A DNA stretch of 64,000 nucleotides from an uncultured Planctomycetales bacterium (GCA_964645795.1 CAZYCL010000004.1:88292-152291); one strand, 5' to 3'. Shown: positions 10,800 through 58,448, numbered from the stretch's first letter. The notes: a model not told the origin generated them from the letters alone. Numbers and translations: made by a program.

Positions 10800-10901
10800 A
10801 CCGCATGCCGTGGCGCTCAAACATCCTCGCCGTGCCGAGATCGCCCCGCCTATGGCGGGGCCTTAGTCTATGTGAAAGGGCACTTTTAAATTTAGACCAA
10901 C

Positions 10902-11864
10902 ATGAACGAGAAGATAATTGAGTTTTTGAAGAAAAAAGAAGGGTATGTATCCGGGGACCAGATCGCCCACAGGCTCGGGATCAGCCGGCAGGCGCTCTGG
11001 AAGCATATTCAGGAGCTCAAAGATTTAGGTTACGATATTGTAGCCGTGCCGCATTTGGGTTACCGCCTGGACGCCGCTCCTGACCGGCTTTTTGATTTTG
11101 AAATAAAGAGCGCTCTCAATACCAGGTTCGTCGGCAGGCAAATACACTATTTTGAGAACGCTGCTTCCACGATGGAGATCGCCACAAGGCTTGCCCTTGG
11201 AGGCTGTCCGGAAGGGACGCTGGTCATAGCCGAAAGCCAGACTAGAGGCAAGGGGAGGATGGGCAGGAGTTGGTTTTCGCCCAGACATAAAGGGATTTAT
11301 GCATCCCTGATATTAAGGCCCAATACGCTGCCATCCCAGGTATCGGTCCTGACCTTATTAGCCGCGGTCAGTATCGTGGAGGCGCTAAACGAATTCTGCG
11401 GCGTCCCTTCAAAGATCAAGTGGCCAAACGATGTGGTCCTGGAGGGCAGGAAATTAGCCGGGATACTTACCGAGCTTAACGCCGAGATGGACAGGGTCAA
11501 CTTCGTGGTCCTTGGGATAGGCATTAATGTAAATAACGATAAAAAATCCCTGATAAGCGGGGCGGCATCCCTCAAGAGTTTCCTTGGCCATAGCCTAAAT
11601 TTGAACAGGGTGGGGCTCCTGCAGGCGATACTGCGCAGGATCGAAGACAATTATTCCTCTTTTCAAAAAGGCCATCTGCAGGGCATCCTGGAAAAATGGA
11701 AGCAGATGTCGGTAACGCTGGGCACAAGGGTCAAGGTCTATTGCCAGAATGAGCAGGTGGAGGGAGAGGCGGTGGATATAGATTCTGACGGGGGGCTCCT
11801 GGTAAGGCGCGACAGCGGGATCACCGAAAAGATAACCGCGGGCGATGTGGTGGCCTGCCGTTAA
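10902..11864 (+). CDS. birA: bifunctional biotin-[acetyl-CoA-carboxylase] ligase / repressor BirA
   Basis: N-terminal HTH (VSGDQIAHRLGISRQALWKHIQELKDLGY), catalytic QTRGKGRMGRSWFSP (GRGRxGR) motif, and a C-terminal SH3-like domain. Confidence 0.9.
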   Translation: MNEKIIEFLKKKEGYVSGDQIAHRLGISRQALWKHIQELKDLGYDIVAVPHLGYRLDAAPDRLFDFEIKSALNTRFVGRQIHYFENAASTMEIATRLALGGCPEGTLVIAESQTRGKGRMGRSWFSPRHKGIYASLILRPNTLPSQVSVLTLLAAVSIVEALNEFCGVPSKIKWPNDVVLEGRKLAGILTELNAEMDRVNFVVLGIGINVNNDKKSLISGAASLKSFLGHSLNLNRVGLLQAILRRIEDNYSSFQKGHLQGILEKWKQMSVTLGTRVKVYCQNEQVEGEAVDIDSDGGLLVRRDSGITEKITAGDVVACR

Positions 11865-22709: not shown

Positions 22710-25034
22710 ATGAAGATCTATGCCAAGTCTGTGACGCTGCTTGTCCTTTTTGCCGTTTTTTTGACCACAGGCATCTTTTTGGATTTAAAAGCCGCAGGCC
22801 AGCCCGCAGGCAATAGCCGCTGTCTTGTGCATGCGGTATTTTACGGTCTTAGCTTAGCGGTATTTACGGCATTTGTCCTGGGCGTGGCGCGCAAGCTAAG
22901 GTTGGTTGCGGCCGGGTTAAAATCCCAAGATGCGCCCCTCTTTGCCAGGATGCGGGAAGGCAAAGACGAGTTCGCGGATATCGCCGGAACACTTACCCTG
23001 TATTTCTGGCAGAAGGAAGAGTTGGCCAGGCGGACCCAGGAGCGCATGACCACCGAGGAGGCCCTGCGTGATTCCGAGGTAAAGTACTCGGTGCTGGTGG
23101 AGTATGCCAAGGACGGGGTGGTCATAGTCCAGGACGGGCTGCTTAAGTTCACCAACCGCGCTATTGAAAACATACTCGGATATAATAATCAGGAGCTGGT
23201 AGACATGCCTCTGGAGGCGGTGCTGGCTCCGGAGTACCGGCAGATGACCATACGCATGTATATGCTGCGCATGGCCGGCGATAACGTGCCGAACTTTTAC
23301 GAGGCCAGGATGCTCTGTAAGGACGGCACGGTCAAAGACATCGAGATATCGGCCTCTATTATCCGTTATCAGGGAAAGAACGCGAGCATGGCGATATTAA
23401 GGGACGTCACGGAACGGAAAAAAATGGAGAACGAATTGCGGCAGGCAAAGGAGCAGGCGGAGTTTGCCAGCCGCGCCAAGAGCCAGTTCCTGGCGAACAT
23501 GTCGCATGAGATACGCACTCCCATGAACGCCATCGTGGGCTTCGCGGACCTCCTGCGTTACTCCAGCCTTGACCGGACCCAGAAATCATATCTGGATACG
23601 ATCTGCGCCAGCGGCGAAGCTTTGCTTACCGTCATAGACGATATACTGGATATCTCCAAGATCGAAGCCGGCAAGATACAGCTCGATAACATAGATTTTA
23701 ACCTTGAATATCTGGTCGAAAGCGTGATCAAAATAGTCAGCCACAGGCTTAAAAGCGGGCAGGTCGAGCTGTTCTATGAGTTCGCAGAAGATACGCCGCG
23801 GGATTACAAGGGGGATCCGGCCCGCGTACGTCAGATACTGCTTAACATCCTAAGCAATGCGGTCAAGTTCACGGAGAAGGGGGTGATCTCGGTCAGGGTC
23901 AGCCTCGAAGAGCCGATACCCGCGCCTCAAGAAGGCCCCTGCAGGCTACGCGTCTGCATCAAGGATACGGGCATAGGGATCGCCCGCGACAAGCAGGCCA
24001 AAATATTCCAGGCCTTCAGCCAGGCAGACGCTTCTACCGCCAAAGAATACGGAGGCACGGGGCTGGGGCTCTATATTTGCAAGACATTGGTTGAGCTGAT
24101 GAGCGGCAGGATCTGGCTGGAATCGCAGGAGGGCTCGGGCAGCGAGTTCATATTCACCGTCATGCTCACTAAGGCGCTGCCTGTAGTTGATAAAGACATC
24201 GCGCCGGTAAAGCCGCAGCTTTTAAAGGACAAAAAGGTAGCGATCATTGAGGCCAACCGGACGCTGCAGGGGCTGCTGGAGGACCACTGCCGCAATGCCC
24301 AGATGCGGGTATGCTTTAAATCCTCGAACATCAAAGACGCCCTGGAGTGGCTTTGCGCCCAGGCAGAGCTGCCCGATATCATGCTCTGCGACGTGCGGCT
24401 GGACAGCAGCGAAGGATACGCCCTGGCCAGGGTCCTAAAGCGGGAGGTAAAGTATAAGGACATAAAACTGGTCGCCATAACGACAGAAGCCAAGACCGGA
24501 GCCGCGCGCAGCCTTCAGGAAGCGGGCTTTGACGCGTATCTGCCCAAGCCCGTGATAAAGAACGACCTGATGAGCGTTATCCAGATCGTGCTGGGAGACA
24601 AGCGCGCTGAAAAGCAGATCATCACCCGGCACATGGCCCAGGAGCTGCTGTTAAAGGGCATAAGGGTGCTGGTAGTCGAAGACAACGAAGTGAATTCAAG
24701 GCTTATCAATATCATGCTGGCCAATCTCGGATGCATCGTTGAGACGGCGGTAAACGGCAGGGAGGCGATAGAAAAGATCAAGGCGGCTAACTTCGACATC
24801 ATACTAATGGATATCCAGATGCCGGAGCTTGACGGCATAGAAACTACCAAGTTTATCCGCAACCAGCTTAAAAGCAAGATCCCGGTAGTGGCATTTACTG
24901 CCGCGGTGATGAAGGACGACGAGCAGAAGGCGCTATCTGCCGGCATGGACGGGTTCCTCAGCAAACCCATCACCGTGGAAAAGCTTAAGAACATGTTCAT
25001 CCAGCAGCAGATCATCCTGCGCTCGCAAGAATGA
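22710..25034 (+). CDS. hybrid sensor histidine kinase (TM sensor, PAS, HisKA, HATPase, receiver-like and receiver domains)
   Basis: H-box LANMSHEIRTPMNAI, N/G boxes (ILSNAVKFT, DTGIGI, YGGTGLGLYIC) and a C-terminal receiver (VLVVEDNEVN...ILMDIQMPELDG...KP). Paralog of the gene at 37874-40177. Confidence 0.9.
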   Translation: MKIYAKSVTLLVLFAVFLTTGIFLDLKAAGQPAGNSRCLVHAVFYGLSLAVFTAFVLGVARKLRLVAAGLKSQDAPLFARMREGKDEFADIAGTLTLYFWQKEELARRTQERMTTEEALRDSEVKYSVLVEYAKDGVVIVQDGLLKFTNRAIENILGYNNQELVDMPLEAVLAPEYRQMTIRMYMLRMAGDNVPNFYEARMLCKDGTVKDIEISASIIRYQGKNASMAILRDVTERKKMENELRQAKEQAEFASRAKSQFLANMSHEIRTPMNAIVGFADLLRYSSLDRTQKSYLDTICASGEALLTVIDDILDISKIEAGKIQLDNIDFNLEYLVESVIKIVSHRLKSGQVELFYEFAEDTPRDYKGDPARVRQILLNILSNAVKFTEKGVISVRVSLEEPIPAPQEGPCRLRVCIKDTGIGIARDKQAKIFQAFSQADASTAKEYGGTGLGLYICKTLVELMSGRIWLESQEGSGSEFIFTVMLTKALPVVDKDIAPVKPQLLKDKKVAIIEANRTLQGLLEDHCRNAQMRVCFKSSNIKDALEWLCAQAELPDIMLCDVRLDSSEGYALARVLKREVKYKDIKLVAITTEAKTGAARSLQEAGFDAYLPKPVIKNDLMSVIQIVLGDKRAEKQIITRHMAQELLLKGIRVLVVEDNEVNSRLINIMLANLGCIVETAVNGREAIEKIKAANFDIILMDIQMPELDGIETTKFIRNQLKSKIPVVAFTAAVMKDDEQKALSAGMDGFLSKPITVEKLKNMFIQQQIILRSQE

Positions 25035-25047
25035 TGTTATAACCCCA

Positions 25048-25076
25048 TTGACTTTGCCCTCTGGCTGGAGTAGAAT
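25048..25076 (+). promoter_or_regulatory. candidate sigma70 promoter (TTGACT-17 bp-TAGAAT)
   Basis: TTGACT at 25048-25053, a 17-nt spacer and TAGAAT at 25071-25076, upstream of the second TonB-dependent receptor. Confidence 0.4.
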
Positions 25077-25111
25077 TCCTATTATTGTCGCAGCAGCCGG
25101 CCGGGGAGGAT

Positions 25112-26953
25112 ATGAGGCTTAGAGTATATTTATCACTGGCGTTGTTTCTATTATTGATTACCAGCCAGGTTTTCGCCCTTGAGCCGGAGGTGGAGCTGGA
25201 AAAGATACTGGTTACTAATCGCCGGGCGGACAGCTTTTTATCGCAAGCCACTGAGAATATTGAAGTTTTAAACGCGGGTAAGATCGAGAAGATACCCGCG
25301 CAAAACCTTTCCGAGGTCTTAAAGAGGATCGGCGCAGTGGACATCCAGCCGCGCCAGGGCTTTGGCCGGGCGACATCGATCAGTATCCAAGGCTGTGAAA
25401 GCCGGCAGGTCAAGATGCTCATTGACGGCATCCCCCTGAATACTCAATCCTCAGGCCAGGTCAACCCCGCTGAATTCCCCGTTGAATACATAAAGCGCAT
25501 CGAGGTCATTAAGGGCGCTGCTTCCAGCCTTTGGGGTTCGGGGCTGGGAGGGGTGATCAATATCGTCACCAAAGACACGGGTAAAGAGCTTGTTCCTACG
25601 GGAAGCATTACTTCGTCTTTTGCCGAGCATCGCAGCCGCAGGCAGGCCCTGGACCTGGCAGGCGCAGCCGGGGGCCTCGGTTATTATCTTTTTTCCAGCC
25701 TGACGGAATCGGGCGGCCGCGGCCGGCACGATGACGTTTTGGAGAAAAAGGCCTTTGGCAAAATATCCTACGACCTGAAAGAAGCGGGAAAACTCCTCTG
25801 TTCTTTCGGTTTCAGCCAGGCCGATGTCAACAGCGGCATATACCCTGACGGAAGCTGGGATTCCCAGCCTTACCGCGACCGTTACGGTAAAATAAGCTGG
25901 GAGAATAATATCGGAGCGGCTGACCTGAAGATAGAGGCAAAGCATTTCCGCAAGGATATCGTCACCAAATACTTCGCCACCGCCGAAGACAACGATGCGT
26001 ATATGCTGTTGCGTTTCAAAGACGTGTTGTATCAGTTGAGCGTCAGTTCGAGTTGGAAGCCCAGGGACAAAGACCTCCTGGTAATAGGCGCGGATTTCGA
26101 TTGCGATAATGTCAAAAGCGACGCTTATCTGGATAAGGCTAAAACAGTGCGCACGCAGGCGCCTTATCTTAACTATACCCTTGAATTAGGCCCATGGAGC
26201 CTTAACGCCGGGGCGCGTTACGATAATAACAGCGAATTCGGCGAAGCGCTCAGCCCTTCTCTGGGAGCGGTCTACCGTATTCAGGGTTTACCGGCTACCC
26301 TTATCCGCGCAAGCGTATCGCGCGCCTTTACTGCTCCGCCCCTGCTCTGGAAGCACAACCAGAATCCCAATCTATGGACCCTTCCCGCAACAGGCCTTAA
26401 GCCGGAAAGGGCCTGGGTATACGAACTGGGAGGGGAGAGTGAGCTTCAGCCCTGGCTGTGGGTCAAGCTCGGCCTTTACCGCGCCGACATTAAGGACGCC
26501 ATAGACGATGATTATACCGAGACCGGCGAGCGCTATAAAAGAAATTACTATAAATTCTTAAGGCAGGGCGCAGAGCTGCAGCTGCGCTGGAAGCTTAGCG
26601 AAGAATTCAGCTTCATGGGAGGGGCAGCCTTTAACGATATCAAGGACAAGACCACTAAACAAACCCTGCGCGGCGCAGGCAGGCCCAGGCAGAGCTTTGA
26701 CGCCGGGTTCGAGTATCAAAATAAATGGGGGCTGTCTATCGGGATATTCGGCAGCTATGACCGTTTCGGCGAGCCGCCGGCCTTTGAGCCCAATGACCGC
26801 AAGATGCTCTGGGATATGAAGATATCCTGGGAGAACAAGCACATCAAACCGTTCCTTAATATTTATAACCTTGGAAACAGCTCTTATTGGGATGATTACT
26901 GGTTCCCCGTTCCGGAAAGATACTTCGAAGGCGGGATCACCATTAAGTGGTAA
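25112..26953 (+). CDS. TonB-dependent outer-membrane receptor (paralog of 11941-13779)
   Basis: Signal peptide MRLRVYLSLALFLLLITSQVFA and plug motifs (IDGIPLN, IKRIEVIKGAASSLWGSGLGGVINIVTK). C-terminal barrel ends in W. ATG 25112 with SD GGGGAGGA is preferred over the TTG at 25085. Confidence 0.8.
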   Translation: MRLRVYLSLALFLLLITSQVFALEPEVELEKILVTNRRADSFLSQATENIEVLNAGKIEKIPAQNLSEVLKRIGAVDIQPRQGFGRATSISIQGCESRQVKMLIDGIPLNTQSSGQVNPAEFPVEYIKRIEVIKGAASSLWGSGLGGVINIVTKDTGKELVPTGSITSSFAEHRSRRQALDLAGAAGGLGYYLFSSLTESGGRGRHDDVLEKKAFGKISYDLKEAGKLLCSFGFSQADVNSGIYPDGSWDSQPYRDRYGKISWENNIGAADLKIEAKHFRKDIVTKYFATAEDNDAYMLLRFKDVLYQLSVSSSWKPRDKDLLVIGADFDCDNVKSDAYLDKAKTVRTQAPYLNYTLELGPWSLNAGARYDNNSEFGEALSPSLGAVYRIQGLPATLIRASVSRAFTAPPLLWKHNQNPNLWTLPATGLKPERAWVYELGGESELQPWLWVKLGLYRADIKDAIDDDYTETGERYKRNYYKFLRQGAELQLRWKLSEEFSFMGGAAFNDIKDKTTKQTLRGAGRPRQSFDAGFEYQNKWGLSIGIFGSYDRFGEPPAFEPNDRKMLWDMKISWENKHIKPFLNIYNLGNSSYWDDYWFPVPERYFEGGITIKW

Positions 26954-26980
26954 GGCTTAGCGTTTAATTACAGGAGCCGC

Positions 26981-28600
26981 ATGTTAAGAGCAATCCCCTG
27001 TCTTTTCCTGATCCTGGTCCTTCCTTTTAATATCAGCGCCAAAGATATCAATACGCAGTCCGGTCCTTACGGCGGCACCCTTGTCTGGGGCAGCTGTTAT
27101 CCTCCGACGATAATCAACCCTATCCTTACGACCCACAGTATTTCGATGACCCTGCAGGACCTTATTTTTAATAAGCTGATCCGCCTGAATTCTAAAGGAG
27201 AGCTGGAAGGCGACCTGGCTGAAAAGTGGGAAGTATCCGAAGACGGGCTGACCTACACTTTTTATCTGCGCCGGGGAGTGCGTTTTCATGACGGGGCAGA
27301 GCTGAGCTCCCAAGATGTGAAGTTTACCTTCGATAAGATCACTGATCCCCAAACCAGCTCGCCTTTTCGTTCGCTTTTTGACCTGGTCAAGGAGTTTAGA
27401 GCCAAAGATAAATACGTCTTCCAGGTCGAGCTGACCAAGGCCAGCCCTTCATTCATTTACCGGCTGATAAAGGAGATCGCGCCCAGGCATCTTCTGGAGA
27501 ATAAAGATTTGAATAAAGCCGCCTTTAATCGCTCACCCGTAGGCACCGGGCCGTTTAGATTCAGAGAGTGGAGCAAGGACGGAGAGATCATCCTTGAGTA
27601 CAACCCGGATTATTATGAGGGCAGGCCGTATTTAGACAGGATAATCGTAAAGACCTATCCTGATTCGCACAAGCTCTGCGCGGCAATGATGCGCCAGGAG
27701 GCAGACCTGGCTTTTTACATCGATAAAGATGATTATGAGATGATAAAGAAAGATCCTTCGTTTCACGCTTATGCCCTTGCGGTGGATACGTATTACGCCA
27801 TGGTCTATAATCTTGAGGATCCTATCCTGTCTGATATAAGGGTAAGGCAGGCAATCGTCCATGCTGTTAACCGTAAAGCCCTGATCGAAGAGGTAGCTTC
27901 CGGTTACGGTGAAGAGAGTATTGGGCCGTTTTCTTTCGCCTCCCCGGCTTTTAACCGCGGGATAAAACCTTTTGAGTTTGATCCGCAAAAGGCAAAGGCG
28001 CTCTTGGATACTGCGGGATGGAGGCATAGGGATGGAGACGGCATACGCGAAAAAAAAGGCATAAAGTTAGAATTACGGGTTTTAGTTGATTCCCGTCAGC
28101 CAGTGCTTAAACGTATTGCAATGGTCTTAAGGCAACAGCTACAGTCCGTGGGGCTGAAGCTTACCGTTCATTTGTACAATGATGATACTGAACTGACAGA
28201 GGATCGTTTGCAGAATAATGCGCAAGCTCAAATAATAACATTGATTTCAACAAGAGAAGACCCCGGGCAATTATTAGATTGGTCTCCAGAGGAGTACTCC
28301 GAGACTTATTGTCTGTGGATGTATAAAAACCCAGAAATAGCGAGATATTTTAGTTTAGGCAGGATTTGTAAAAGCGCAGAGAAAAGAAAACGGATTTATC
28401 AAAAAATCCACAACATCATTTATGCAGATCAGCCCGCCTGCTTTCTTTATTTCCCATCCTCTTTCTTTGCTTCTTCATCAAGAATCCAAAATATTGATGA
28501 GCTTTTTACGCATACCGTGCCGGTTTACACAATTAAAAACTGCACAATTAAAGAAGGTAGTTTGTCTCAAGACAGAAGGGAGGTGAGAAAATGGAGGTAA
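26981..28600 (+). CDS. ABC-transporter substrate-binding protein, family 5 (peptide/nickel/opine-type SBP)
   Basis: Signal peptide and an SBP_bac_5-like core (GPFRFREWSKDGEIILEYNPDYYEGRPYLDRI, AMVYNLEDP), 539 aa. No cognate permease or ATPase genes are adjacent. Confidence 0.75.
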   Translation: MLRAIPCLFLILVLPFNISAKDINTQSGPYGGTLVWGSCYPPTIINPILTTHSISMTLQDLIFNKLIRLNSKGELEGDLAEKWEVSEDGLTYTFYLRRGVRFHDGAELSSQDVKFTFDKITDPQTSSPFRSLFDLVKEFRAKDKYVFQVELTKASPSFIYRLIKEIAPRHLLENKDLNKAAFNRSPVGTGPFRFREWSKDGEIILEYNPDYYEGRPYLDRIIVKTYPDSHKLCAAMMRQEADLAFYIDKDDYEMIKKDPSFHAYALAVDTYYAMVYNLEDPILSDIRVRQAIVHAVNRKALIEEVASGYGEESIGPFSFASPAFNRGIKPFEFDPQKAKALLDTAGWRHRDGDGIREKKGIKLELRVLVDSRQPVLKRIAMVLRQQLQSVGLKLTVHLYNDDTELTEDRLQNNAQAQIITLISTREDPGQLLDWSPEEYSETYCLWMYKNPEIARYFSLGRICKSAEKRKRIYQKIHNIIYADQPACFLYFPSSFFASSSRIQNIDELFTHTVPVYTIKNCTIKEGSLSQDRREVRKWR

Positions 28601-28686
28601 TCAGGTTTGGGTCAGATGTAGTTTCGCAGATGACTCCAAGAGGTTGTTGTTACCCCGTAGGTTCAATGTCAGTTCGCGTAAGGTAA
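28591..28686 (+). CDS. small Cys-containing peptide ORF (31 aa: MEVIRFGSDVVSQMTPRGCCYPVGSMSVRVR), candidate RiPP precursor
   Basis: ATG 28591 is preceded by a strong SD GGGAGGTGA at 7-nt spacing. It lies 20 nt upstream of a radical-SAM/SPASM gene and was not in the six-frame track, which shows nothing shorter than 60 aa. It overlaps the last 10 nt of the SBP gene in another frame. Confidence 0.4.
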   Translation: MEVIRFGSDVVSQMTPRGCCYPVGSMSVRVR

Positions 28687-28706
28687 GAAAAGCATCCAAG
28701 TAGCGG

Positions 28707-30119
28707 ATGGATAAGGCTCTCGAAAGAGAGGCTTACCATCCTAAAAAATCAATTATGGAGCTTTCAAGGTTTAATTGCTGGGTCAAGGATCATCCGGGTA
28801 AGGGAGATTACCTGCTTTTTAACTGCCGCACGCAGGGCCTGATCAGGGTTAATCCGGAGTTTAAAGCCGCGTTAGAGTCGTTAGGGGCGGGCATTGTCCC
28901 GGAGCTATTAACCCCACATATTTTAGCGCTCAAGCAGAACGGGATGATCGTGGAGGACAGGGCTGAGGACGAGTCGAAGCTACGTGATTTTTTCCGGCAG
29001 CTAAAGGCCGGCCCCTGCGGCCTGAGCTTCGAGGTAAACATCCTTACCACTTATAACTGCAACTTCCGCTGCGTTTACTGCTTCGAAGAAGGCGCAAGGA
29101 GCAGGGCCAGGCTTAATAAAAAAACCAGCGAGCTTGTCGTCAGATGGCTTAAGGATTATATCCTTGCCAGGGGCCTGACAAAGCTTTACGTCGTCTATTA
29201 CGGAGGCGAGCCGCTCTTAAATACGTTCCCGATTTACGGGATCTCCGGAGAATTAAAAGAGTGGGCCGGCGTCAATAAAATAGATTTTGCTTTCGGCATC
29301 ATCACTAACGGCAGCCTGATCACCCCTAAGCTTGTCGAAGAGCTGCTGCCTTTGGGCTTACGCGACATCCGCGTAACCCTCGACGGCCCTGCCGAGGTGC
29401 ACGACCGCATGCGGCCGTTCTGCGACGGCTCGGCTACTTTTAACCGGATAATCGAGAATATCAAGAGCGTCATCGGCAAGGTGAACGTCGGCATTGCGGG
29501 AAACTTTGACCGCCGGAGCTTTCCGGCTATTCCCAGGCTTCTTGATTATTTAAAAGAAGAAGGATTATTCGAGCGCCTGGGTGAGCTCAACTTCGCCCCC
29601 ATTACTCCCAGGCTCGGCCCGAAAGGCAGTCCCGCATCCATAGAGCTGTCCGAGTGCATGAGCTTTATCGATGATAAAGACGGGCTGTTCGAAGAGACGG
29701 TCCTTATGAAAAGAGAGCTGGCCAGAAGAGGGAAGACGCCTGCCAGCGGGCTGAATATCAATGCCTGCCCTTTGTTCATGCAGGACATCGGTCTGACCAT
29801 CGACCCCAAGGGCGATATCTATAAATGCAACTCCCTGCTTGGGCACCAAGAGTTCAGCGTCGGTAACGTCCGCCAAAAAGGCTTTAACGGCAAGTTTGAA
29901 ATGTTTCGCAATATCGATGCCTGGGAGAAGTGCAGCGATGACTGCCCTTATGTGCCGATGTGCCAGGGCGGCTGCCGCTTCTTTTCCTATATCGAGAACA
30001 AAAACTTCACCGACCTTTTCTGCCGCAGGGAGTACTTTGACAGGATCATACCCGAGCTCATTAAATTAGAGTATAATAACCTGGCGCAGGCAAGGCAGGC
30101 GGCCGCAGGCAAACAATGA
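28707..30119 (+). CDS. radical SAM / SPASM-domain peptide-modifying enzyme
   Basis: CxxxCxxC (YNCNFRCVYCFEEG) radical-SAM cluster motif and a C-terminal Cys-rich SPASM region (CPLFMQD...CNSLLG...CSDDCPYVPMCQGGCRFF). The ~100-aa N-terminal extension is consistent with a peptide-recognition (RRE-like) domain. Confidence 0.8.
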   Translation: MDKALEREAYHPKKSIMELSRFNCWVKDHPGKGDYLLFNCRTQGLIRVNPEFKAALESLGAGIVPELLTPHILALKQNGMIVEDRAEDESKLRDFFRQLKAGPCGLSFEVNILTTYNCNFRCVYCFEEGARSRARLNKKTSELVVRWLKDYILARGLTKLYVVYYGGEPLLNTFPIYGISGELKEWAGVNKIDFAFGIITNGSLITPKLVEELLPLGLRDIRVTLDGPAEVHDRMRPFCDGSATFNRIIENIKSVIGKVNVGIAGNFDRRSFPAIPRLLDYLKEEGLFERLGELNFAPITPRLGPKGSPASIELSECMSFIDDKDGLFEETVLMKRELARRGKTPASGLNINACPLFMQDIGLTIDPKGDIYKCNSLLGHQEFSVGNVRQKGFNGKFEMFRNIDAWEKCSDDCPYVPMCQGGCRFFSYIENKNFTDLFCRREYFDRIIPELIKLEYNNLAQARQAAAGKQ

Positions 30120-31849
30120 AAAACTCCAAGACTCTCCTTAAACTGCTCTCCCCGTATAAAAAACACCTATTTCTGATCCTGCTTTCCGTGATCATCGCCA
30201 ATGCCGCCGGCCTGTTTTTGCCCTGGGCGCTAAAGCTCATTGTCGATGAGGTGGTAATAAAGAAGGAATTCGCGGCGCTGAACATGATCTGCCTGGCGCT
30301 TATCCTGGCATTTTTGGCCAGGTTCTGCTTCGGCTACCTTAGGGAGTACCTGTCTTCTTTTGTGGGGGAGAAGGTCGTCTGCGACCTGCGCGAAAAGATA
30401 TACTGGCAGCTGCAGCGGCTCTCGGTGCATTACGTTGACAGCACCCCGAAGGGCAGGATCATCTCGGGTATCACTTCGGATGTAGAGGATATCCGCGATT
30501 TTTTGTTCGGCGGGGCAATGGATTTCATATATGGGATTTTTAACATTGTTTTTGTCTTTACGGTCCTGGCAGCGCTTGACCGCGAACTGGCCCTGATCTC
30601 TTTCCTATATCTGCCTGTTTTTATCCTGGTTTTTCATCACGTCGCCCCGCAGCTCAAAGAAAGACACGGCCGGATCAGGGAGCATTTTAGCGCGCTGACT
30701 TCTACCGTTAACGAGTTCCTGCAGGGCATACGCGTAGTCGCCGGGTTCTCATCCCATGAAGCCGAAGCCAAAAAGTTTTGCAGCCGGCAAAGGGAGTTGT
30801 TCGGCGCCAGCATCGAGAGCCACAGGATGAGCATCCTTCTATGGGTCGGCGCCGAGTTCCTTAGCTCTCTGGCCCTGGCAACCGTAGTATGGTTCGGGGC
30901 CAGGCGCGTGATGAGCGGCTCGATCACCGTAGGAACGCTCATAGCGTTTTATTCGTACCTGGCGATGTTATTCTATCCCGTTGTCAGGATGGCGATCATC
31001 AACGATTATTACCAGCAGGCAAGCGCGGGGATCGAGCGGGTCCGCCAGATCCTGGAAGCCCGGCCCCGGGTAGTTGAGCCAAAAAACCCCGTCCGCCTGT
31101 CCGCGATAGACAAGGGCATAGTATTCTCGGGGGTAAGCTTTGGCTACAATGAGGCTAAAGAGGCGCTCTCGGATATAAACCTTAAGATAGATAAATCGCA
31201 GGTTGTGGCAATAGTCGGAAAGAGCGGCGCCGGAAAGACCACGCTTATCAACCTCCTCCTGAGATTCTACGATCCGCAAAAAGGGGAGATCCTCATCGAC
31301 GGGCATGACCTGAAGCACCTGGACCTGGGTTGTTACCGCCGCCGCATCGCCATGGTCATCCAGGACGATTATCTTTTTGCGGCGACCGTCAGGGAGAACA
31401 TCTCCTACGGCCGCCCCGACGCCACGCAAGAACAGGTCGTCGAGGCAGCCAGGAAGGCCAATGCCCATGATTTTATCATGCAGCTGGAATCGGGTTACTC
31501 TACCGGCATCGGCGAGCGCGGGGTCAGGCTTTCTTACGGGCAGAGGCAGCGCATCTCCATCGCCCGGGCAATACTCAGGGACCCGGAGATACTTATCCTC
31601 GATGAAGCCACCTCCAACGTAGATACCGAAACCGAAAAGGCGATCATCGAGCAGGCCTTCCGCAATCTGATTAAAGACAGGACTACGCTGATAGTCGCTC
31701 ACCGGATGTCCGCGATCAGCTATGCAAACAGAGTTGTATTTTTGGACGGCGGCAGGATAACCGAAGCAGGCTCGCCTTCCGAGCTGATCAGCAAGAAGGG
31801 TGATTATTGGAGGATGCTTTCCGGCCAGCAGGAGGCCGCAGCCATTTAA
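30116..31849 (+). CDS. ABC exporter, fused permease-ATPase (type I exporter)
   Basis: Six-TM N-terminal half, Walker A GKSGAGKTT, signature LSYGQRQR, Walker B ILILDEATS. ATGA overlap with the rSAM gene. Confidence 0.9.
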   Translation: MKNSKTLLKLLSPYKKHLFLILLSVIIANAAGLFLPWALKLIVDEVVIKKEFAALNMICLALILAFLARFCFGYLREYLSSFVGEKVVCDLREKIYWQLQRLSVHYVDSTPKGRIISGITSDVEDIRDFLFGGAMDFIYGIFNIVFVFTVLAALDRELALISFLYLPVFILVFHHVAPQLKERHGRIREHFSALTSTVNEFLQGIRVVAGFSSHEAEAKKFCSRQRELFGASIESHRMSILLWVGAEFLSSLALATVVWFGARRVMSGSITVGTLIAFYSYLAMLFYPVVRMAIINDYYQQASAGIERVRQILEARPRVVEPKNPVRLSAIDKGIVFSGVSFGYNEAKEALSDINLKIDKSQVVAIVGKSGAGKTTLINLLLRFYDPQKGEILIDGHDLKHLDLGCYRRRIAMVIQDDYLFAATVRENISYGRPDATQEQVVEAARKANAHDFIMQLESGYSTGIGERGVRLSYGQRQRISIARAILRDPEILILDEATSNVDTETEKAIIEQAFRNLIKDRTTLIVAHRMSAISYANRVVFLDGGRITEAGSPSELISKKGDYWRMLSGQQEAAAI

Positions 31850-31855
31850 ACCAGG

Positions 31856-33670
31856 ATGAAAATACCGAATCTCCAAAAGGCCTTCCTAAAGTTAGTAGTA
31901 AAGGTTTTTTACCGGCAAAGGCAGCTTAAGGCAGCGGCCCTGATATTTATCGTCATCGGCTCGGCGATCGTTTTCGGCGGTCTTATCTTTATGGGCGCTT
32001 TTTACTCCGCCGGCAAAAAAGCGATAATGGATAAACACGAGGCTATCGCCTCCAGCGCATCAGAAGAGATAAGGCATATACTAAGGCGGCACGAGGATTT
32101 ACTCGGTTCGGCCGCCTCGATCATCGGCAGCCTTGATAACGATCCCTGGCAACAGGAGACGATCTTGGTGGAGCTGGTGCTTAGAAATCCGGCGTTCCTG
32201 CGCGTCTCTTCATTTGACCTTAAATGCCGCCTCACCGCTACCTCCGATCTGGGCGAGGCGCCGCGATGCCCTGACGAAGACAAGGTGCTCGGCGGCATCA
32301 CCGCGGGCAACAGCTATGTCTCTGAGGCGCGGTTTTACAACAACGGCATCCCTTATGTCTCGATGGCCCTGCCCATAAAGAGGTCGGGAGAGGTCCGCGC
32401 CTTTTTATTGGCGGACATCGACATAAAGGAGGTCTGGAGCGCGATGGATAACGTGCATGTGGGCAGGAGTGGCTATATCGCGGTCGTTTCAAAAGACGGC
32501 TCCCTGATAACGCATAAGGATAAGAAGCTGGTGTTCAAGAAGGCCAATATCATCACAGATAAGGACGCTTCCTCGGTCCTGCAGGGCGAAGCCGCAAGCA
32601 AGGAGTGGTTTGACGATAAGGCTAAGACGCGCTGGCTAAGCAGTTACGTGCCGATAGGCAGCACCCCCTGGGGGCTTATGCTGCGCCAGGCCAGCGATGA
32701 GGCGTTCTTTTCTTTGAGGTTGCTGAGGATCCAGATGAGCGTGATCATTATTCTCGGCCTCATCATTGCGGCGGGGCTGTCTTTTTATTTAGGCAACCTC
32801 TTTGTTAAGCCGCTTCAGCTTTTGATCCTTCAGGCGCGCGGCATGGGCCTGGCCCCCCGGCCGGAAAAGGGTAATAGCGAAGACGAGCTAAGACAGCTGA
32901 CCAGCATATTCGACCGCCTCTCCTCAAGGCTAAAGGAGGCCGAAGCCACCCAGAGGTTTTCCGGGATCGGAGAGGCCACTGCCTGGGTGGCGCATGAGCT
33001 GAAGAACTCTCTTTTCTCCATAAAATCGTTTGTCCGTCTTTTTCCGCAGCGCCAGAATGACGAGCAGTTCGTCAGGAAGTTCAACACCCTTGTCCCCGAA
33101 GAGATCGAAAGGCTGGAGCGCATTTTAAGGGACCTGACATACTTCTCTGCGTCCGGGGAGATCGTCCGGGTGCCGGTGGATATCAGGGAGGTGATAACGC
33201 AGGTCGTGGGCCTTACCGAGGAGACGCTCAGGCAAAGGCATGTCTGCCTGCAGTGCAAGTTGCAATCCGCAGAGCTCATACTTGAGGCAGACGCGGAATT
33301 ATTGAAGCAGGTATTCCTCAACCTTATCATCAATGCCGTCCATGCCATGCCCCAGGGCGGCGAGATTACCATATCCGCCGAGCCGATAAATGCCGCCTAT
33401 CTGCAGTTAAGGGTCAGCGATACGGGCTGCGGTATCCCGCAAGAGCGCCTGAAAGATATCTTTGAGCCTTTTCGCTCCACCAAAAAAGACGGCTTCGGCT
33501 TGGGGCTCTTGATATGCCGCAAGATCATCCAGCAGCACGGCGGCTCGGTAGAGGTGGCAAGCCGCCCCAACCAGGGAACGACGTTTACGATAACCCTGCC
33601 CGTTAAGAACGTCCCGGAGTTCAATAAGCGCTTCGATCCGGTAACCGATAAAGACAGCGTCCATGGTTAA
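31856..33670 (+). CDS. sensor histidine kinase with periplasmic Cache-like sensor domain
   Basis: Two TM segments flank a ~250-aa extracytoplasmic domain. H-box VAHELKNSL, N-box LINAVHAM, G-boxes DTGCGI and GFGLGL. Confidence 0.85.
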   Translation: MKIPNLQKAFLKLVVKVFYRQRQLKAAALIFIVIGSAIVFGGLIFMGAFYSAGKKAIMDKHEAIASSASEEIRHILRRHEDLLGSAASIIGSLDNDPWQQETILVELVLRNPAFLRVSSFDLKCRLTATSDLGEAPRCPDEDKVLGGITAGNSYVSEARFYNNGIPYVSMALPIKRSGEVRAFLLADIDIKEVWSAMDNVHVGRSGYIAVVSKDGSLITHKDKKLVFKKANIITDKDASSVLQGEAASKEWFDDKAKTRWLSSYVPIGSTPWGLMLRQASDEAFFSLRLLRIQMSVIIILGLIIAAGLSFYLGNLFVKPLQLLILQARGMGLAPRPEKGNSEDELRQLTSIFDRLSSRLKEAEATQRFSGIGEATAWVAHELKNSLFSIKSFVRLFPQRQNDEQFVRKFNTLVPEEIERLERILRDLTYFSASGEIVRVPVDIREVITQVVGLTEETLRQRHVCLQCKLQSAELILEADAELLKQVFLNLIINAVHAMPQGGEITISAEPINAAYLQLRVSDTGCGIPQERLKDIFEPFRSTKKDGFGLGLLICRKIIQQHGGSVEVASRPNQGTTFTITLPVKNVPEFNKRFDPVTDKDSVHG

Positions 33671-34349
33671 GAACCCGCGGCAAGATACGGCAACAAAGAT
33701 AACCGTACTGCTGATAGATGACCACAAGATGATCAGGGAAGGCCTGCGTTTACTGCTGGAGGGGTCTTCGCATTTTGAGATCATCGCAGAGGCCGATAAC
33801 GGCCGGGACGGGGTTGAGGCCGCTTGCAGGCTTCTGCCCGAAGCGGTAGTGATGGATGTGTCTATGCCCGACCTTAACGGCATGGAAGCCTGCCGTAAAA
33901 TATCAGAGAGGGTCCCCAAGACCAAAATAATCGCCCTTTCCATGCACGCCGAGCGCCGGTTCGTCGAAGAGATGCTCAAGGCCGGCGCCAGCGCCTACGT
34001 GCTTAAGGATAACGCCTTCGATGAGCTGCTTCTGGCGATACGGGCTTCCCTTAACGGAGACTCCTACCTTTCTCCGGAGATCACCAGGTTAATGGTTTCC
34101 GAGTTCATCAGCCCCCGGGATAACGCCGGCCGCAAAAGCCCCGGGGCGCACGAGGCCCTGACTGCGCGGGAGAGGGAAGTGCTGCAGCTTGTTGCCGAAG
34201 GCGTCTCCACCAAGCTTATAGCCCGCAAGCTAAAAGTAAGCGTCAAGACCGTTGAAAGCCACCGTCAGCAGATCATGCACAAGCTCAAGCTCTACAGCGT
34301 CGCCGAGCTTACCAAATACGCCATCCGCGAAGGCATTACCTCCGTCTAA
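33663..34349 (+). CDS. NarL/FixJ-family response regulator (receiver + LuxR-type HTH)
   Basis: Receiver (VLLIDDH...VVMDVSMPDLNG...SMH) and a C-terminal LuxR HTH (LTAREREVLQLVAEGVSTKLIARKLKVSVKTVESHR). Confidence 0.9.
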   Translation: MVKNPRQDTATKITVLLIDDHKMIREGLRLLLEGSSHFEIIAEADNGRDGVEAACRLLPEAVVMDVSMPDLNGMEACRKISERVPKTKIIALSMHAERRFVEEMLKAGASAYVLKDNAFDELLLAIRASLNGDSYLSPEITRLMVSEFISPRDNAGRKSPGAHEALTAREREVLQLVAEGVSTKLIARKLKVSVKTVESHRQQIMHKLKLYSVAELTKYAIREGITSV

Positions 34350-34444: not shown

Positions 34445-36562
34445 ATGCCAAAGAAACGCGTGTCTGTCTTCCACGGGATGCTTTTCTCTTATCTGCTTGT
34501 AGGCCTGGTAGCTGGCCTGGCCATCGGGCTGTGGCAGGGCCACCGCGTAGTTTCGATAACCGCTATCCTGATTTTTGCATATTTCCTGGCCATATTTGTT
34601 TCCCGCAAACTTTTACTGCCCCTTAACAAGATCTCCGATTATCTGGGGGAAGTGGCCGAAGGCAATTTCCTTAACCGGATCAATTTCAGGAGCTGGAAGG
34701 AGATAGAGGCGCTGACTTGCGGATTCAACAGGATGGCGGAGAAGCTCAACAGGCGCTTTATCCTGCGCGAAGAGCTGGCTAAAGAGGCCGAAGAGCGCAA
34801 GCGGCTGGAATCGGCGTTCCTTGAAAATGAGGCGCTAAACCGCGCGCTCTTCGAATATTCCGGGGACGGCATACTGCTGATCTATAAGGATATGATCGTC
34901 GACTGCAACGGCCGGAGCCTGGAGATGCTCGGCTGCCGGCGTCAGGATCTGATCGCCAGGCCCCTCTATTCATTTTCCCCGTTAATACAGCCGGACGGCT
35001 GTTCTTCCGAAGGCAAGGCCAGGAGGATGCTGGAAGAGGCGTTTTTAGGCAGGCGGCAGTCTTTTGAATGGGTCTACGACAGGCCTGACGGCCAGACGCT
35101 CTACGTAGAGCTGGCTTTAAACAGGGTTGAGGCAGGCAACAAAGCGATGGTCCAGGTAATACTGCGCGATATAACAAGGCGTAAGCTCTGCGAAGAGAAG
35201 ATGCGCAAAATCAGCCTTCTGCAGGCAGAGATGCTTAAGCCCGGTTCGATAAAGGAAAAGACCGCGGTCGTAGCACAGGAAGTGTCCAAGATGTTTAAGG
35301 CGCAGCTATGCTGCATCTGGATAGCGGGGCCGGCGGATATATGCGAGCGCGGCTGCGCGTACGCATCAGCAAAAGAAGGCTGCCCCTGCAGTAGCCGCCG
35401 GCAGTGCCTTCATCTGGCCGCCAGCGCCGGTGATCATGAGGATGCCGTGCAGGAGTGGGCCCGGCGGCTGCCCCTGGAGTCATCCAGGATTGGCGCCGTC
35501 GCCACCGGTCATCAGCGCGGTTTCTTTAGCAATGATCCTGCCGGATGGCCCCTGCCCGGCGCAGTTGAATGGGCAAGCGGGCTGGGCATCGAGTCTTGCG
35601 CCGCCTGCCAGCTTTGTCCTTGCGAGGATAATCTGGCCGGGGCGCTGGCCATATTTTGCCGCAGCGAAATATCAGCCGAAGATTACCGGCTTATCGAGGG
35701 GCTGAGCAATACCGTCGCCCTTATGGTGCAGTCAGCGCGAGCGCAGGAATCCGTCATTAATTACGCCTGCCGGATCCAGGCGGTTAACCGGGAGCTGGAT
35801 GATTTTACCTACATCGTCAGCCACGACCTGAAAGAGCCGCTTAGGAGTATCAACGCCTTCTCCAAATTCCTGGAGGATGATTACGGCCCCGCGTTCGACG
35901 AGAACGCCAGGCGATACATCCAGCGCATCAAGGCCAATACCGATCATATGCACGCGCTGATCGAGGACCTGCTTGAGATATCGCGCATCGAAAGGAAGTT
36001 AAATCCGATGGAGGAGGCCGACATCGGCGCCATCATCGATGAGGCAAGGCGCCGTCTTGAGTATTCGATCCAGGAAAAAAATGTCGTCGTCGACATCAAA
36101 GGCGATCTGCCCAGGATTTACTGCGACAGGACAAGGATCACCGAGGTCTTCGCCAACCTTTTTTCCAACGCCATCAAGTTTAACGACAAGCCCGAGCCGC
36201 GCATAGAAGTAGGCTATTCGCTGGAGGGCGCATACCACCAGTTTTACGTCAGGGACAACGGCCCGGGCATCGAGGAGCAGTATTTTGAGAAGATATTCTC
36301 CATTTTTCAGAGGCTGGTCAAGAAGGAGGATTACGAGGGCACCGGGGCCGGGCTTACGATAGTCAAAAAGATCATAGGTATGCACCGGGGCAGGGTTTGG
36401 GTAGAATCAAGACCCGGAGAGTTCAGCGCGTTTTATTTTACTATACCGGCGGCAAAAGAAGCGATATACGCCAGGAAAAAGCTGGGAGAGATACTGCTGG
36501 ACAAAAAGATGGTCACCGAAACACAGCTTAACCTGGCGCTGGAGGAACAGGCCGGTTTATAG
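34445..36562 (+). CDS. sensor histidine kinase (TM-HAMP, PAS, GAF-like, HisKA, HATPase)
   Basis: HAMP-like linker, H-box VSHDLKEPLRSI (phytochrome-type HisKA), N-box LFSNAIKFN, G-boxes DNGPGI and GTGAGL. Confidence 0.85.
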   Translation: MPKKRVSVFHGMLFSYLLVGLVAGLAIGLWQGHRVVSITAILIFAYFLAIFVSRKLLLPLNKISDYLGEVAEGNFLNRINFRSWKEIEALTCGFNRMAEKLNRRFILREELAKEAEERKRLESAFLENEALNRALFEYSGDGILLIYKDMIVDCNGRSLEMLGCRRQDLIARPLYSFSPLIQPDGCSSEGKARRMLEEAFLGRRQSFEWVYDRPDGQTLYVELALNRVEAGNKAMVQVILRDITRRKLCEEKMRKISLLQAEMLKPGSIKEKTAVVAQEVSKMFKAQLCCIWIAGPADICERGCAYASAKEGCPCSSRRQCLHLAASAGDHEDAVQEWARRLPLESSRIGAVATGHQRGFFSNDPAGWPLPGAVEWASGLGIESCAACQLCPCEDNLAGALAIFCRSEISAEDYRLIEGLSNTVALMVQSARAQESVINYACRIQAVNRELDDFTYIVSHDLKEPLRSINAFSKFLEDDYGPAFDENARRYIQRIKANTDHMHALIEDLLEISRIERKLNPMEEADIGAIIDEARRRLEYSIQEKNVVVDIKGDLPRIYCDRTRITEVFANLFSNAIKFNDKPEPRIEVGYSLEGAYHQFYVRDNGPGIEEQYFEKIFSIFQRLVKKEDYEGTGAGLTIVKKIIGMHRGRVWVESRPGEFSAFYFTIPAAKEAIYARKKLGEILLDKKMVTETQLNLALEEQAGL

Positions 36563-36581: not shown

Positions 36582-37058
36582 ATGGCGCAAAAGATCAGGG
36601 GCGCGGTGAAGATCCTGCTGGTAGAGGATACGCCCGATGATGTCATGATCACGCAGAGGGCGCTCAAAGAGGCTAAGCTCCTCAACAGGCTGCACGTTGC
36701 CAGGGACGGGCAGGAGGCCCTGGATTACCTCTGGCATTGCGAGGCAGCGGATAAGGACGCCGGCCCCCTTCCCGGATTGATACTTTTGGATATCAATATG
36801 CCCAAGATGAGCGGATTGGATGTCCTCAGGCGCATAAAAAGCGACAATAATCTGAAGAAGATACCGACGGTGATCCTCACCGTCTCCCAGAAAGAGGAGG
36901 ACATCGAAAAGGGTTACTACTACGGCTGCAACAGCTTTATCCAGAAACCTGTGGAGTTTGAGAAGTTCGTGGAGGTAGTCAAGCAAATCGGTCTCTATTG
37001 GGGTTTTATAAACGTGAATATACCGGAAGGCCTGGAAAGGGGGGCGCCCAAGTCATGA
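36582..37058 (+). CDS. single-domain response regulator (CheY-like)
   Basis: KILLVEDTPDD...LILLDINMPKMSG...TVS...K receiver motifs, 158 aa. Confidence 0.85.
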   Translation: MAQKIRGAVKILLVEDTPDDVMITQRALKEAKLLNRLHVARDGQEALDYLWHCEAADKDAGPLPGLILLDINMPKMSGLDVLRRIKSDNNLKKIPTVILTVSQKEEDIEKGYYYGCNSFIQKPVEFEKFVEVVKQIGLYWGFINVNIPEGLERGAPKS

Positions 37059-37756
37059 TCGTTTCTGCTCATCAACCGCAGTATTTGCCGTGGTCAGGCT
37101 ACTTCGATAAGATAGCCAAAAGCGACTGCTTTGTTTTCCTGGATCAGGTGCAGTACAAACAACGCGAATTTCAGAATCGTAATAAGATAAAGGTCAAAGA
37201 CGGATGGGCGTGGCTGACCGTGCCGGTAAAGACCAAGTACAGGTACAAGCAGCCGATCCGGGATGCCCTTGTTGATAATGGGCTAAGCTGGGGCAGGGAG
37301 CATTTGCATCTGATCAAGGCCTGGTACGCCGATGCGCCGTATTTTGGCCGCTACAAGGCTTTTCTCGAAGATGTGTATTGGCGTTCGTGGGAGAAGCTCA
37401 GAGATTTGAATGCATTCCTGATCAAATACGTGATGAAGGAGCTTGATATAGACAGGCCAGTATACTTTGAATCTGAGCTGAGCATATCCAGCGACAGGAC
37501 GGATAGGATCATCGATATCTGCAGGCGCCTCGGGGCCAACACGTATCTGGCGGGCGTCGGTTGCAGGGCCTACCTTCAGGAGGATAAGTTCATCTCTGCC
37601 GGCATAAAGCTGGTATACCACGAGTTTAAGCATCCGGAATATAAACAGCTGCACGGCGCAAGGTTTATCCCGTGCCTGTCGGTCTTCGACCTGCTTTTGA
37701 ACGAAGGCGATAACGCAAAAAGCATACTCGGCTTAAAACAGGCCACTGCGGTCTAA
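37055..37756 (+). CDS. WbqC-like family protein
   Basis: MIVSAHQPQYLPWSGYFDKIAKSDCFVFLDQVQY N-terminus is typical of WbqC-like proteins. ATGA overlap with the upstream receiver gene. Confidence 0.65.
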   Translation: MIVSAHQPQYLPWSGYFDKIAKSDCFVFLDQVQYKQREFQNRNKIKVKDGWAWLTVPVKTKYRYKQPIRDALVDNGLSWGREHLHLIKAWYADAPYFGRYKAFLEDVYWRSWEKLRDLNAFLIKYVMKELDIDRPVYFESELSISSDRTDRIIDICRRLGANTYLAGVGCRAYLQEDKFISAGIKLVYHEFKHPEYKQLHGARFIPCLSVFDLLLNEGDNAKSILGLKQATAV

Positions 37757-58402: not shown

Positions 58403-58448
58403 CGGCTTTACTTGAAAATATATAAATAATATAGTATAATTGTCTTAG

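Follow-up and report, generated by a model that had tools for sequence, protein, structure and literature searches.

A conserved, unannotated cysteine peptide gene adjoining a predicted radical SAM/SPASM maturase in an operon with a TonB-dependent receptor, an orphan binding protein and a histidine kinase

We analysed a 64,000-nt stretch of DNA from an uncultured Planctomycetales bacterium (GCA_964645795.1, CAZYCL010000004.1:88292-152291), hereafter the window, whose numbering is used throughout. The subject is a 31-aa open reading frame (ORF) at 28591-28686 on the plus strand, upstream of a gene for a radical S-adenosylmethionine (rSAM) enzyme, which a preliminary description had proposed as part of a biosynthetic cluster for a peptide that is synthesised ribosomally and then modified after translation (RiPP). 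The ORF and its translation, MEVIRFGSDVVSQMTPRGCCYPVGSMSVRVR, are present in the sequence exactly as described, and the product divides into a leader (MEVIRFGSD), a variable linker and the core P-R-G-C-C-Y-P-V-G-S-M-S-V-R. The strong Shine-Dalgarno (SD) site noted earlier is GGGAGGTGA at 28578-28586 (+), with a distance of 7 nt between its GGAGG core and the ATG. It lies inside the last codons of a gene encoding a family 5 solute-binding protein (SBP_bac_5; 26981-28600), a gene that the preliminary description did not mention and whose end is overlapped by the start of the peptide gene by 10 nt. Because the C-terminus of the binding protein (…DRREVRKWR) is encoded by the SD and start region of the peptide gene, and because the two genes overlap, the arrangement implies a putative tight translational linkage between them. 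The end of the binding protein in related loci, K/R-G-G-E/R, is likewise encoded by AAAGGAGGTGA. Public gene calls on the identical contigs list the binding protein, the rSAM enzyme, the ABC exporter, the kinase and the regulator and lack the peptide gene; furthermore, neither the exact window peptide nor those of four close relatives had a match in a collection of 15 billion proteins, and the window peptide matched nothing in Pfam and NCBIfam even at E ≤ 10. The ORF is unannotated in these resources, as had been stated. Short ORFs with two adjacent cysteines (CC) and any SD-like site number five in the whole window, one of which adjoins the rSAM gene, and a search across the window for second CC-peptide copies with an SD found none that was credible.

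To compare the locus with its relatives, 80 loci were fetched from species-representative genomes encoding a relative of the enzyme, and 69 of them, with at least 200 nt of sequence 5' of the rSAM gene, were used for the upstream count. A comparable ORF of about 30 aa lies 50-290 nt 5' of the enzyme gene in about 59 of the 69 loci, and nearly all of these ORFs are preceded by a near-consensus SD of the AAAGGAGGTGA type. The association greatly exceeds chance expectation. Automatic picking had given 60 of 69; the pick in L062 (MTALALS...KCCH...) was spurious and was discarded, a peptide 3' of the rSAM gene taking its place. This locus is one of eight further loci of the Nitrospinota/Nitrospirota type (L051, L058, L062, L064, L067, L069, L072 and L075) in which a peptide with the same SD lies directly 3' of the rSAM gene, between the rSAM gene and the gene of the family 5 binding protein (SBP5). 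Peptides of this clade have a single Cys flanked by aromatic residues, e.g. MKLQIVKKGDKSKQGKTLYCVWLV and MKLKVVKKGSRGDKKILWCWWWVAW; therefore one Cys suffices for the enzyme superfamily. The other loci without a picked peptide are mostly cut by contig ends. A true exception is L066 (6692-9341), the one complete locus in which the maturase gene directly follows aroA, with no peptide or binding-protein gene upstream and with the exporter, kinase and regulator still 3' of the maturase; its precursor may be encoded elsewhere in the genome or have been lost.

Within the window's own clade, where the enzymes are 50-61% identical, the peptide alignment reads MEIIRKGSD - variable linker - P[RL]GCC[FWY]PxG[TS]xGxR, with the core motif C-C-[FWY]-P-x-G-[ST]-x-x-x-R. 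Pairwise identity of the peptide genes at codon positions 1, 2 and 3 is 0.64, 0.66 and 0.38, respectively, and two to five synonymous codons are used for each of the invariant residues G, C, C, P, G and R. All indels lie in the stretch that separates the conserved N-terminal block from the CC block, in line with a leader/core layout. A profile of 20 orthologous peptides from which the window was excluded recovered the window ORF with 60.7 bits (E = 3.7e-18 among 868 small window ORFs), the next best small ORF reaching 8 bits, and a profile made from distant clades alone recovered it at E = 5e-9. The ORF at 28591-28686 is confirmed as a real, conserved and unannotated gene under purifying selection, found beside orthologous rSAM genes across several phyla and carrying a coding signature. 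It agrees with the general description of a RiPP precursor gene, being short, adjoining the maturase gene, conserved together with it and laid out as leader and core, and its product is the predicted conserved substrate peptide of the adjoining rSAM enzyme.

The enzyme gene (28755-30119, +; TIGR04280, TIGR04085, PF04055) encodes a predicted rSAM/SPASM peptide maturase with an N-terminal domain resembling the RiPP recognition element (RRE). Its longest ORF starts at 28707, encodes 470 aa and leaves a gap of 20 nt after the peptide gene, which is the distance given in the preliminary description. Homologues, of which there are more than 100, are 440-460 aa long; they align with 94-96% of the 470-aa ORF, beginning at the equivalent of M17 (MELSRFN; consensus MKLSRFN). 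For this reason the start at 28707 was discarded and 28755 is most likely the true start, with a probable spacer of 68 nt that contains a hairpin; the 20-nt gap holds for the longest ORF only. The CxxxCxxC motif noted earlier is CNFRCVYC, and the scores for the radical SAM domain (PF04055, 60.1 bits, cut-off 29.5) and the SPASM region (TIGR04085, 49.3 bits, cut-off 27) both exceed the thresholds of their models. C102, C106 and C109 are invariant across 26 homologues, and so are the seven SPASM cysteines C338, C358, C393, C397, C403, C407 and C423, laid out as CX14GX4C ... CX3CX5CX3C ... C. Among NCBIfam models the best match is the geopeptide maturase model TIGR04280, with 302.5 bits and below its cut-off of 400, followed by CefB, TIGR04463, FlmE/OhkG, Clo7bot, PapB, DynA, Nif11-type maturase and SCIFF maturase. 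Scores for the SCIFF maturase (TIGR03974, 86.2 vs 425), PapB (101 vs 340) and QhpD (63 vs 453) are likewise below cut-off. The model of the anaerobic sulfatase-maturating enzyme (anSME; TIGR03942) gave 73.7 bits vs 349, and no sulfatase was found among the conserved neighbours of related loci; anSMEs have no RRE, and the window enzyme carries an extra N-terminal domain.

Among solved structures, CteB is the closest to the enzyme in sequence (E = 2.4e-23). In an AF2 model of the enzyme (pLDDT 89.7) an N-terminal β3-α3 domain precedes a partial TIM barrel, and the SPASM region forms the C-terminal part; residues 7-85 form three strands followed by three helices (pLDDT ~95). Foldseek ranked CteB first, over the full length (E ~1e-21, TM 0.65-0.70) and with an alignment that takes in the RRE of CteB, and the later matches included TigE (full length), ChlB, anSME and SuiB. 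We class the enzyme as a predicted RRE-rSAM-SPASM peptide maturase whose RRE-like domain would bind the leader, a role suggested by the model and by the CteB alignment. Formation of a thioether of the sactipeptide or ranthipeptide type is the best and a reasonable guess at the reaction, since CteB, PapB and QhpD, the nearest characterised relatives, all link Cys sulfur to carbon and Cys is the one constant feature of the substrate. Conservation of the small ORF and the grouping of the enzyme with peptide maturases rather than with anSME both support the RiPP-type cluster first proposed.

The spacer that separates the peptide gene from the enzyme gene contains a stable RNA hairpin with a GAAA loop and no U-tract (28705-28741, +; -24.3 kcal/mol, z = -4.5, with 0 of 200 shuffles folding as well). 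Such a spacer hairpin is a trait of the family: 46 of 59 loci have one with z < -2, the median z being -3.2, and hairpins at this position are usually devoid of a U-tract. Such a layout, with a hairpin after the gene, is common among RiPP precursor genes, and the window hairpin is likely an attenuator or a transcript-stabilising element setting a high peptide-to-enzyme ratio. At least 14 own-clade loci (among L003-L025 and L065) have a hairpin with the identical loop region GGCGGCCGAC 21-60 nt past the peptide stop, e.g. at L005:7906-7960 and L003:7919-7973. This loop is more conserved than the flanking genes, compensatory changes are seen in five of six stem pairs, and the motif occurs once per locus, at this position only, and matched no Rfam family; it may be a protein-binding or RNA-processing signal. 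It is absent from the window, where the GAAA-loop hairpin holds the same place. Around the peptide gene in the window and in L005 no Rfam family reached threshold, the sole match below it being the SAR11_0636 sRNA (22.4 bits vs 67).

The peptide and enzyme genes belong to an operon of seven co-directional genes at 25085-34349, with gaps and overlaps of -10 to +68 nt, in the order TonB-dependent receptor, family 5 binding protein, peptide, hairpin, maturase, ABC exporter, dCache kinase and LuxR-type regulator. The cluster first outlined (28591-31849) was right in its core genes, and the unit proved wider, taking in the receptor, the binding protein and the two-component system. A candidate sigma-70-like promoter (TTGACT-17-TAGAAT, a consensus match only) is found at 25048-25076 (+). 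The first gene encodes the TonB-dependent outer-membrane receptor (25085-26953, +; PF07715, PF00593), a BtuB-sized protein with a signal peptide, a plug and a 22-strand barrel, whose best NCBIfam match is TonB-B12 (156 bits, below cut-off) and whose nearest solved relatives are BtuB and Cir. It is followed by the periplasmic binding protein of the peptide/nickel type (26981-28600, +; PF00496, E = 6e-87), which has 539 aa and a signal peptide and is an orphan, no cognate permease or ATPase genes being present. Its scores are below every NCBIfam equivalog cut-off, NikA being the best with 214 bits vs 393; the closest structure is the oligopeptide binder AppA, a binder of nonapeptides (1XOC), with 8EFZ and NikZ (4OET) also among the nearest. 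The exporter gene (30116-31849, +; PF00664 and PF00005, 577 aa) encodes a fused transmembrane and nucleotide-binding domain protein of the MsbA/HlyB type, and its ATG overlaps the maturase TGA (ATGA at 30116-30119), in agreement with the translational coupling reported before. It consists of ABC_membrane and ABC_tran only; there is no C39 peptidase domain and no conserved GG motif before the core, features of double-glycine export. The operon ends with the genes for a membrane histidine kinase with a periplasmic dCache_1 sensor (31856-33670, +; PF02743, PF00512, PF02518) and, overlapping it by 8 nt, a NarL/LuxR-type response regulator (33663-34349, +; PF00072 and PF00196).

Synteny was counted in 30 related loci with complete flanks. 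The peptide was found in 28 (and displaced in one more), SBP5 in 29, the kinase in 29, the regulator in 23, the receptor in 21 and the exporter in 18. The receptor gene is on the same strand in all 21 cases, the kinase gene lies directly 3' of the rSAM or exporter gene in its 29, and the regulator is of the LuxR or the sigma-54 NtrC type. Constancy is thus greatest for the kinase and the binding protein rather than for the receptor. The exporter is kept in all loci of the window's own clade. When the ORFs of the 80 loci were clustered, the only recurrent neighbours were the operon families and a sigma-54 response regulator; no protease, importer permease or ATPase, TonB/ExbBD or extra tailoring enzyme was conserved among them. 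In the Poribacteria locus L061 a family 5 binding domain is fused to an N-terminal HTH_11 domain (9340-11250), as in an SgrR-like regulator, and is presumably cytoplasmic; a longer CC peptide (…TLSACCATSYTNYGG) follows the fusion at about 11363-11527. This locus may be a cytoplasmic-sensing version of the peptide, rSAM enzyme and binding protein system.

The closest named relative is the geopeptide family of Geobacter and Nitrospirota (TIGR04229 for the peptide, TIGR04280 for the maturase), which is defined by comparative genomics only; the literature library searched held no paper on 'geopeptide' or TIGR04280, nor was the system described in it under rSAM or RiPP together with adjacent cysteines, PF04392, TonB, histidine kinases, Omnitrophota or Geobacter, or under ranthipeptides together with TonB. 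Control enzymes from Geobacteraceae and Nitrospirota loci scored 665 (L077) and 583 bits (L079) on TIGR04280, vs 302 bits for the window clade and 322 for the Spirochaete clade. The window peptide gave no match to TIGR04229 (cut-off 30 bits) even at E ≤ 10, and a Nitrospirota peptide gave 15.5 bits. In agreement, the NCBI name "geopeptide radical SAM maturase" is restricted to true geopeptide-type enzymes of Geobacteraceae and Nitrospirota, and the window-clade enzymes are named 'SPASM domain-containing protein' or 'radical SAM protein' only. Since the enzyme is below the TIGR04280 cut-off and the peptide does not match TIGR04229, the window system is, judged from the sequence comparisons, a divergent sister clade of the geopeptide family found mainly in Omnitrophota. 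The earlier statement that the peptide matches no nameable precursor class holds with respect to the cut-offs of both models and has to be amended as regards this kinship.

The two clades share much. Geopeptides likewise start with a hydrophobic β-strand leader whose last residue is G; a linker, in which P is frequent, leads to CC and to 8-11 residues with aromatics and a basic C-terminal end (e.g. EIIEILDAGNEGPVISPESLFCCGLSFNFFRG). Their genes have a strong SD and a post-gene hairpin, with a TonB-dependent receptor, an orphan binding protein and a histidine kinase nearby. All five bona fide geopeptide loci examined contain receptor, peptide and maturase genes; in all five the neighbours include a HAMP kinase and, divergently transcribed, the gene of a PF04392 binding protein, and an importer is absent. 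L079 and L080 have a similar arrangement. In the window, too, the peptide gene is directly 5' of the maturase and the receptor is nearby. The clades differ in the core (CC[FWY]PxG[ST]xxxR in the window clade vs CCxxx[FY]xF[RK] in geopeptides), in the kinase sensor (dCache vs HAMP-only), in the ABC exporter coupled to the maturase, which the geopeptide loci examined lack, and in their hosts (Omnitrophota and relatives vs Geobacter and Nitrospirota). Moreover, the binding protein of the window belongs to family 5 (PF00496), whereas geopeptide loci use the non-homologous PF04392, so that the link of the peptide/maturase pair to a receptor, an orphan binding protein and a kinase outlived a swap of the binding-protein family. 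The persistence of this link is the strongest clue to function.

Two-component genes are unusually frequent around the operon. Two PAS hybrid histidine kinases, paralogues with 51% identity over 669 residues, are encoded on either side of it at 22710-25034 (+) and 37874-40177 (+), a further PAS/HAMP kinase is encoded at 34445-36562 and a stand-alone receiver at 36582-37058. Directly after the two-component genes lies the gene of a WbqC-like protein (36998-37756, +; PF08889, E = 1.7e-73), which is not conserved with the operon. The only Rfam match in the window is a c-di-GMP-I riboswitch aptamer at 58447-58582 (+; RF01051, 48.9 bits vs a gathering threshold of 35, E = 1.6e-6), and no tRNA genes were found in it.

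The following mechanism could unite these features. The RRE domain would bind the leader as a β-strand, and the rSAM/SPASM core would modify the Cys-containing core, the likeliest reaction being, by analogy with CteB, PapB and QhpD, the formation of one or two intramolecular thioethers from a Cys sulfur to a carbon one to five residues downstream. The very strong SD and the post-gene hairpin would yield far more peptide than enzyme, and the coupled ABC exporter would move the product out of the cytoplasm. That peptide, maturase and operon are genuine, and that the leader is captured, the cysteines modified, the peptide made in excess and the product exported through the ABC protein, we hold with good confidence. 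The product, too big for porins, would come back through its dedicated TonB-dependent receptor and be captured in the periplasm by the permease-less orphan binding protein, which, with or without the dCache domain, would report to the kinase and regulator, an autoinducer-like peptide circuit fitted to a two-membrane cell. Certainty falls along these steps, from modification through peptide excess and export to re-entry and sensing. Sensing of the re-admitted product is preferred over nutrient uptake because a conserved inner-membrane importer is missing from both the 30 complete and the five geopeptide loci and because the kinase and binding protein, not the receptor, are constant; this preference is tentative and stops somewhat short of being probable. 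The fullest version, a diderm circuit of peptide cell-cell signalling or self-sensing made up of an exported crosslinked RiPP, its own TonB receptor, a binding protein, a dCache kinase and a LuxR-type regulator, is possible and rather more doubtful.

Known systems resemble parts of this scheme. CteB, the maturase of the SCIFF peptide thermocellin, combines an RRE, an rSAM domain and a SPASM domain with two auxiliary-cluster Cys sets, the layout predicted for the window enzyme, and acts on a short Cys-containing peptide, as the latter would; the own-clade Thr/Ser five residues past the second Cys has a spacing that resembles that of the thermocellin Cys-Thr link. Identity to CteB and other thioether-forming maturases (PapB/freyrasin, QhpD) is 18-20%. 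The window peptide has two Cys, in contrast to six in about 45 residues in SCIFF (TIGR03973) or to repeated CxxxD units, and it does not belong to the SCIFF family, whose loci also lack a comparable context of receptor, binding protein and kinase. In the pheromone circuits ComC/ComAB/ComDE and agr, as in the window, a precursor, an ABC exporter, a membrane histidine kinase and a response regulator are encoded in one locus, and in the binding-protein-dependent kinase systems LuxP-LuxQ and TorT-TorS the gene of an orphan periplasmic binding protein adjoins the kinase gene, as it belongs with the kinase here. The window system differs from the ComC and agr circuits in having neither a double-glycine leader nor a C39 domain and in a peptide predicted to be rSAM-modified, and from pheromone circuits in general in its two-membrane host and in the TonB-dependent receptor that forms part of the module. 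We know of no described peptide quorum-sensing system with a TonB-dependent receptor.

Several points weigh against the proposed mechanism. The type of modification is extrapolated from relatives at 16-20% identity, SPASM enzymes also make C-C, C-O and other links, and TigE, SuiB and ChlB are among the fold matches as well. An initial view of CC as invariant across the superfamily was discarded, given the one Cys of the Nitrospinota-type clade. An exporter gene occurs in only 18 of the 30 complete loci, and the true geopeptide loci have none. A conserved leader protease was not found either, and the exporter itself is devoid of a peptidase domain. Spirochaete-type loci lack the TonB-dependent receptor, and all relatives come from uncultured organisms. 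Furthermore, the receptor, binding protein and kinase could sense some other cue and merely regulate production of the peptide.

The main rival to sensing of the peptide itself is that the peptide is a metallophore, secreted where sulfide and anoxia make Ni, Co, Cu or Zn scarce in order to bind such a metal, the complex returning through the receptor and the NikA/MbnE-like binding protein and the loaded complex in the periplasm inducing the operon through the two-component system, much as ferric enterobactin in the periplasm induces through PfeS/PfeR. A receptor and a family 5 binding protein do flank the peptide gene, a vicinal Cys pair can serve as a soft-metal ligand, and NikA is the best NCBIfam match of the binding protein, with NikZ among the nearest structures; the NikA score, however, is under its cut-off and the closest structure is AppA. 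The methanobactin operons offer the nearest parallel: MbnA is encoded beside the TonB-dependent MbnT and the family 5 MbnE with no linked inner-membrane importer. Like the window, they have a ribosomal peptide gene, a dedicated receptor and an OppA/NikA-type binding protein without a linked permease, and the Cys residues essential in the methanobactin core are a further likeness. Against metal uptake counts the lack of a conserved importer in the 30 complete and five geopeptide loci. MbnB (DUF692) or MbnC domains were found neither in the operon proteins nor in the neighbour clusters, and methanobactin loci differ in their regulation (a sigma/anti-sigma pair vs a two-component system) and exporter (MATE vs ABC). 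A thioether-forming enzyme would, in addition, use up the thiols, one clade has a single Cys, the receptor is missing from Spirochaete loci, and the kinase and binding protein are more constant than the receptor. We therefore consider a metallophore unlikely.

An antimicrobial RiPP, with the ABC protein exporting it or conferring immunity, the two-component system regulating it and the receptor and binding-protein genes as unrelated neighbours, appears improbable. Many sactipeptides are antibiotics encoded beside ABC exporters and two-component systems, and the exporter here is coupled to the maturase; this would leave unexplained, though, the lasting linkage of the pair to a receptor and an orphan binding protein across phyla and even through a family swap. 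The exporter is also the least conserved component, no immunity-type genes or proteases are conserved, and the core is strongly conserved between species, which is unusual for arms-race bacteriocins. Less credible again is a precursor of an intracellular cofactor or regulator in the style of PQQ or mycofactocin, with the receptor scavenging the product as PqqU does PQQ. Exporters are missing from many loci, and the only superfamily-wide constants of the peptide are one or two Cys and neighbouring aromatics; but no protease, oxidase or tailoring genes are conserved, such as all known peptide-derived cofactor pathways need, nor is any client enzyme, and loci of the window's clade show translational coupling of exporter and maturase. 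Finally, an attenuator peptide that senses Cys-tRNA charging and is no substrate at all, recalling trp- and his-type leaders in its tandem Cys codons and the stable hairpin 19 nt on, can be dismissed almost entirely: attenuator leaders conserve regulatory codons only, whereas residues outside CC (G7, P, G and R) are invariant here despite synonymous codons, the hairpin usually has no U-tract and no alternative anti-terminator structure is evident, one clade has the peptide gene 3' of the enzyme gene, where attenuation is impossible, and the enzyme carries a predicted peptide-recognition domain.

The rSAM/SPASM RiPP kind is already known, and the related geopeptide family has database models. 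New are the clade and its core motif, the absence of the peptide from annotation, and the context of receptor, binding protein and kinase across the superfamily. A missed gene thereby gains a function-level annotation, and the combination of a strong SD, a leader of the form hhhhxKG, a Cys or Cys-Cys core and a hairpin provides a search recipe for hundreds of missed precursors in uncultured candidate phyla. The geopeptide family is widened into a multi-clade superfamily whose constant partners are not biosynthetic and comprise an outer-membrane receptor, an orphan binding protein and a histidine kinase, and a core in which an aromatic residue and Pro come after vicinal Cys is a new candidate substrate type for rSAM/SPASM chemistry. 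The possible role of these peptides is that of a ligand which is released and then re-captured or sensed, and the locus suggests that bacteria belonging to Omnitrophota, a candidate phylum, produce and release such a modified peptide and afterwards re-capture or sense it. If true, this would be a new diderm architecture for peptide signalling or metallophore sensing, with interchangeable binding-protein families, in a design common to hundreds of uncultured Omnitrophota, Planctomycetota, Spirochaetota, Nitrospinota, Nitrospirota and Geobacter lineages, and might represent a class of Gram-negative peptide signalling that is widespread and has gone undescribed until now.

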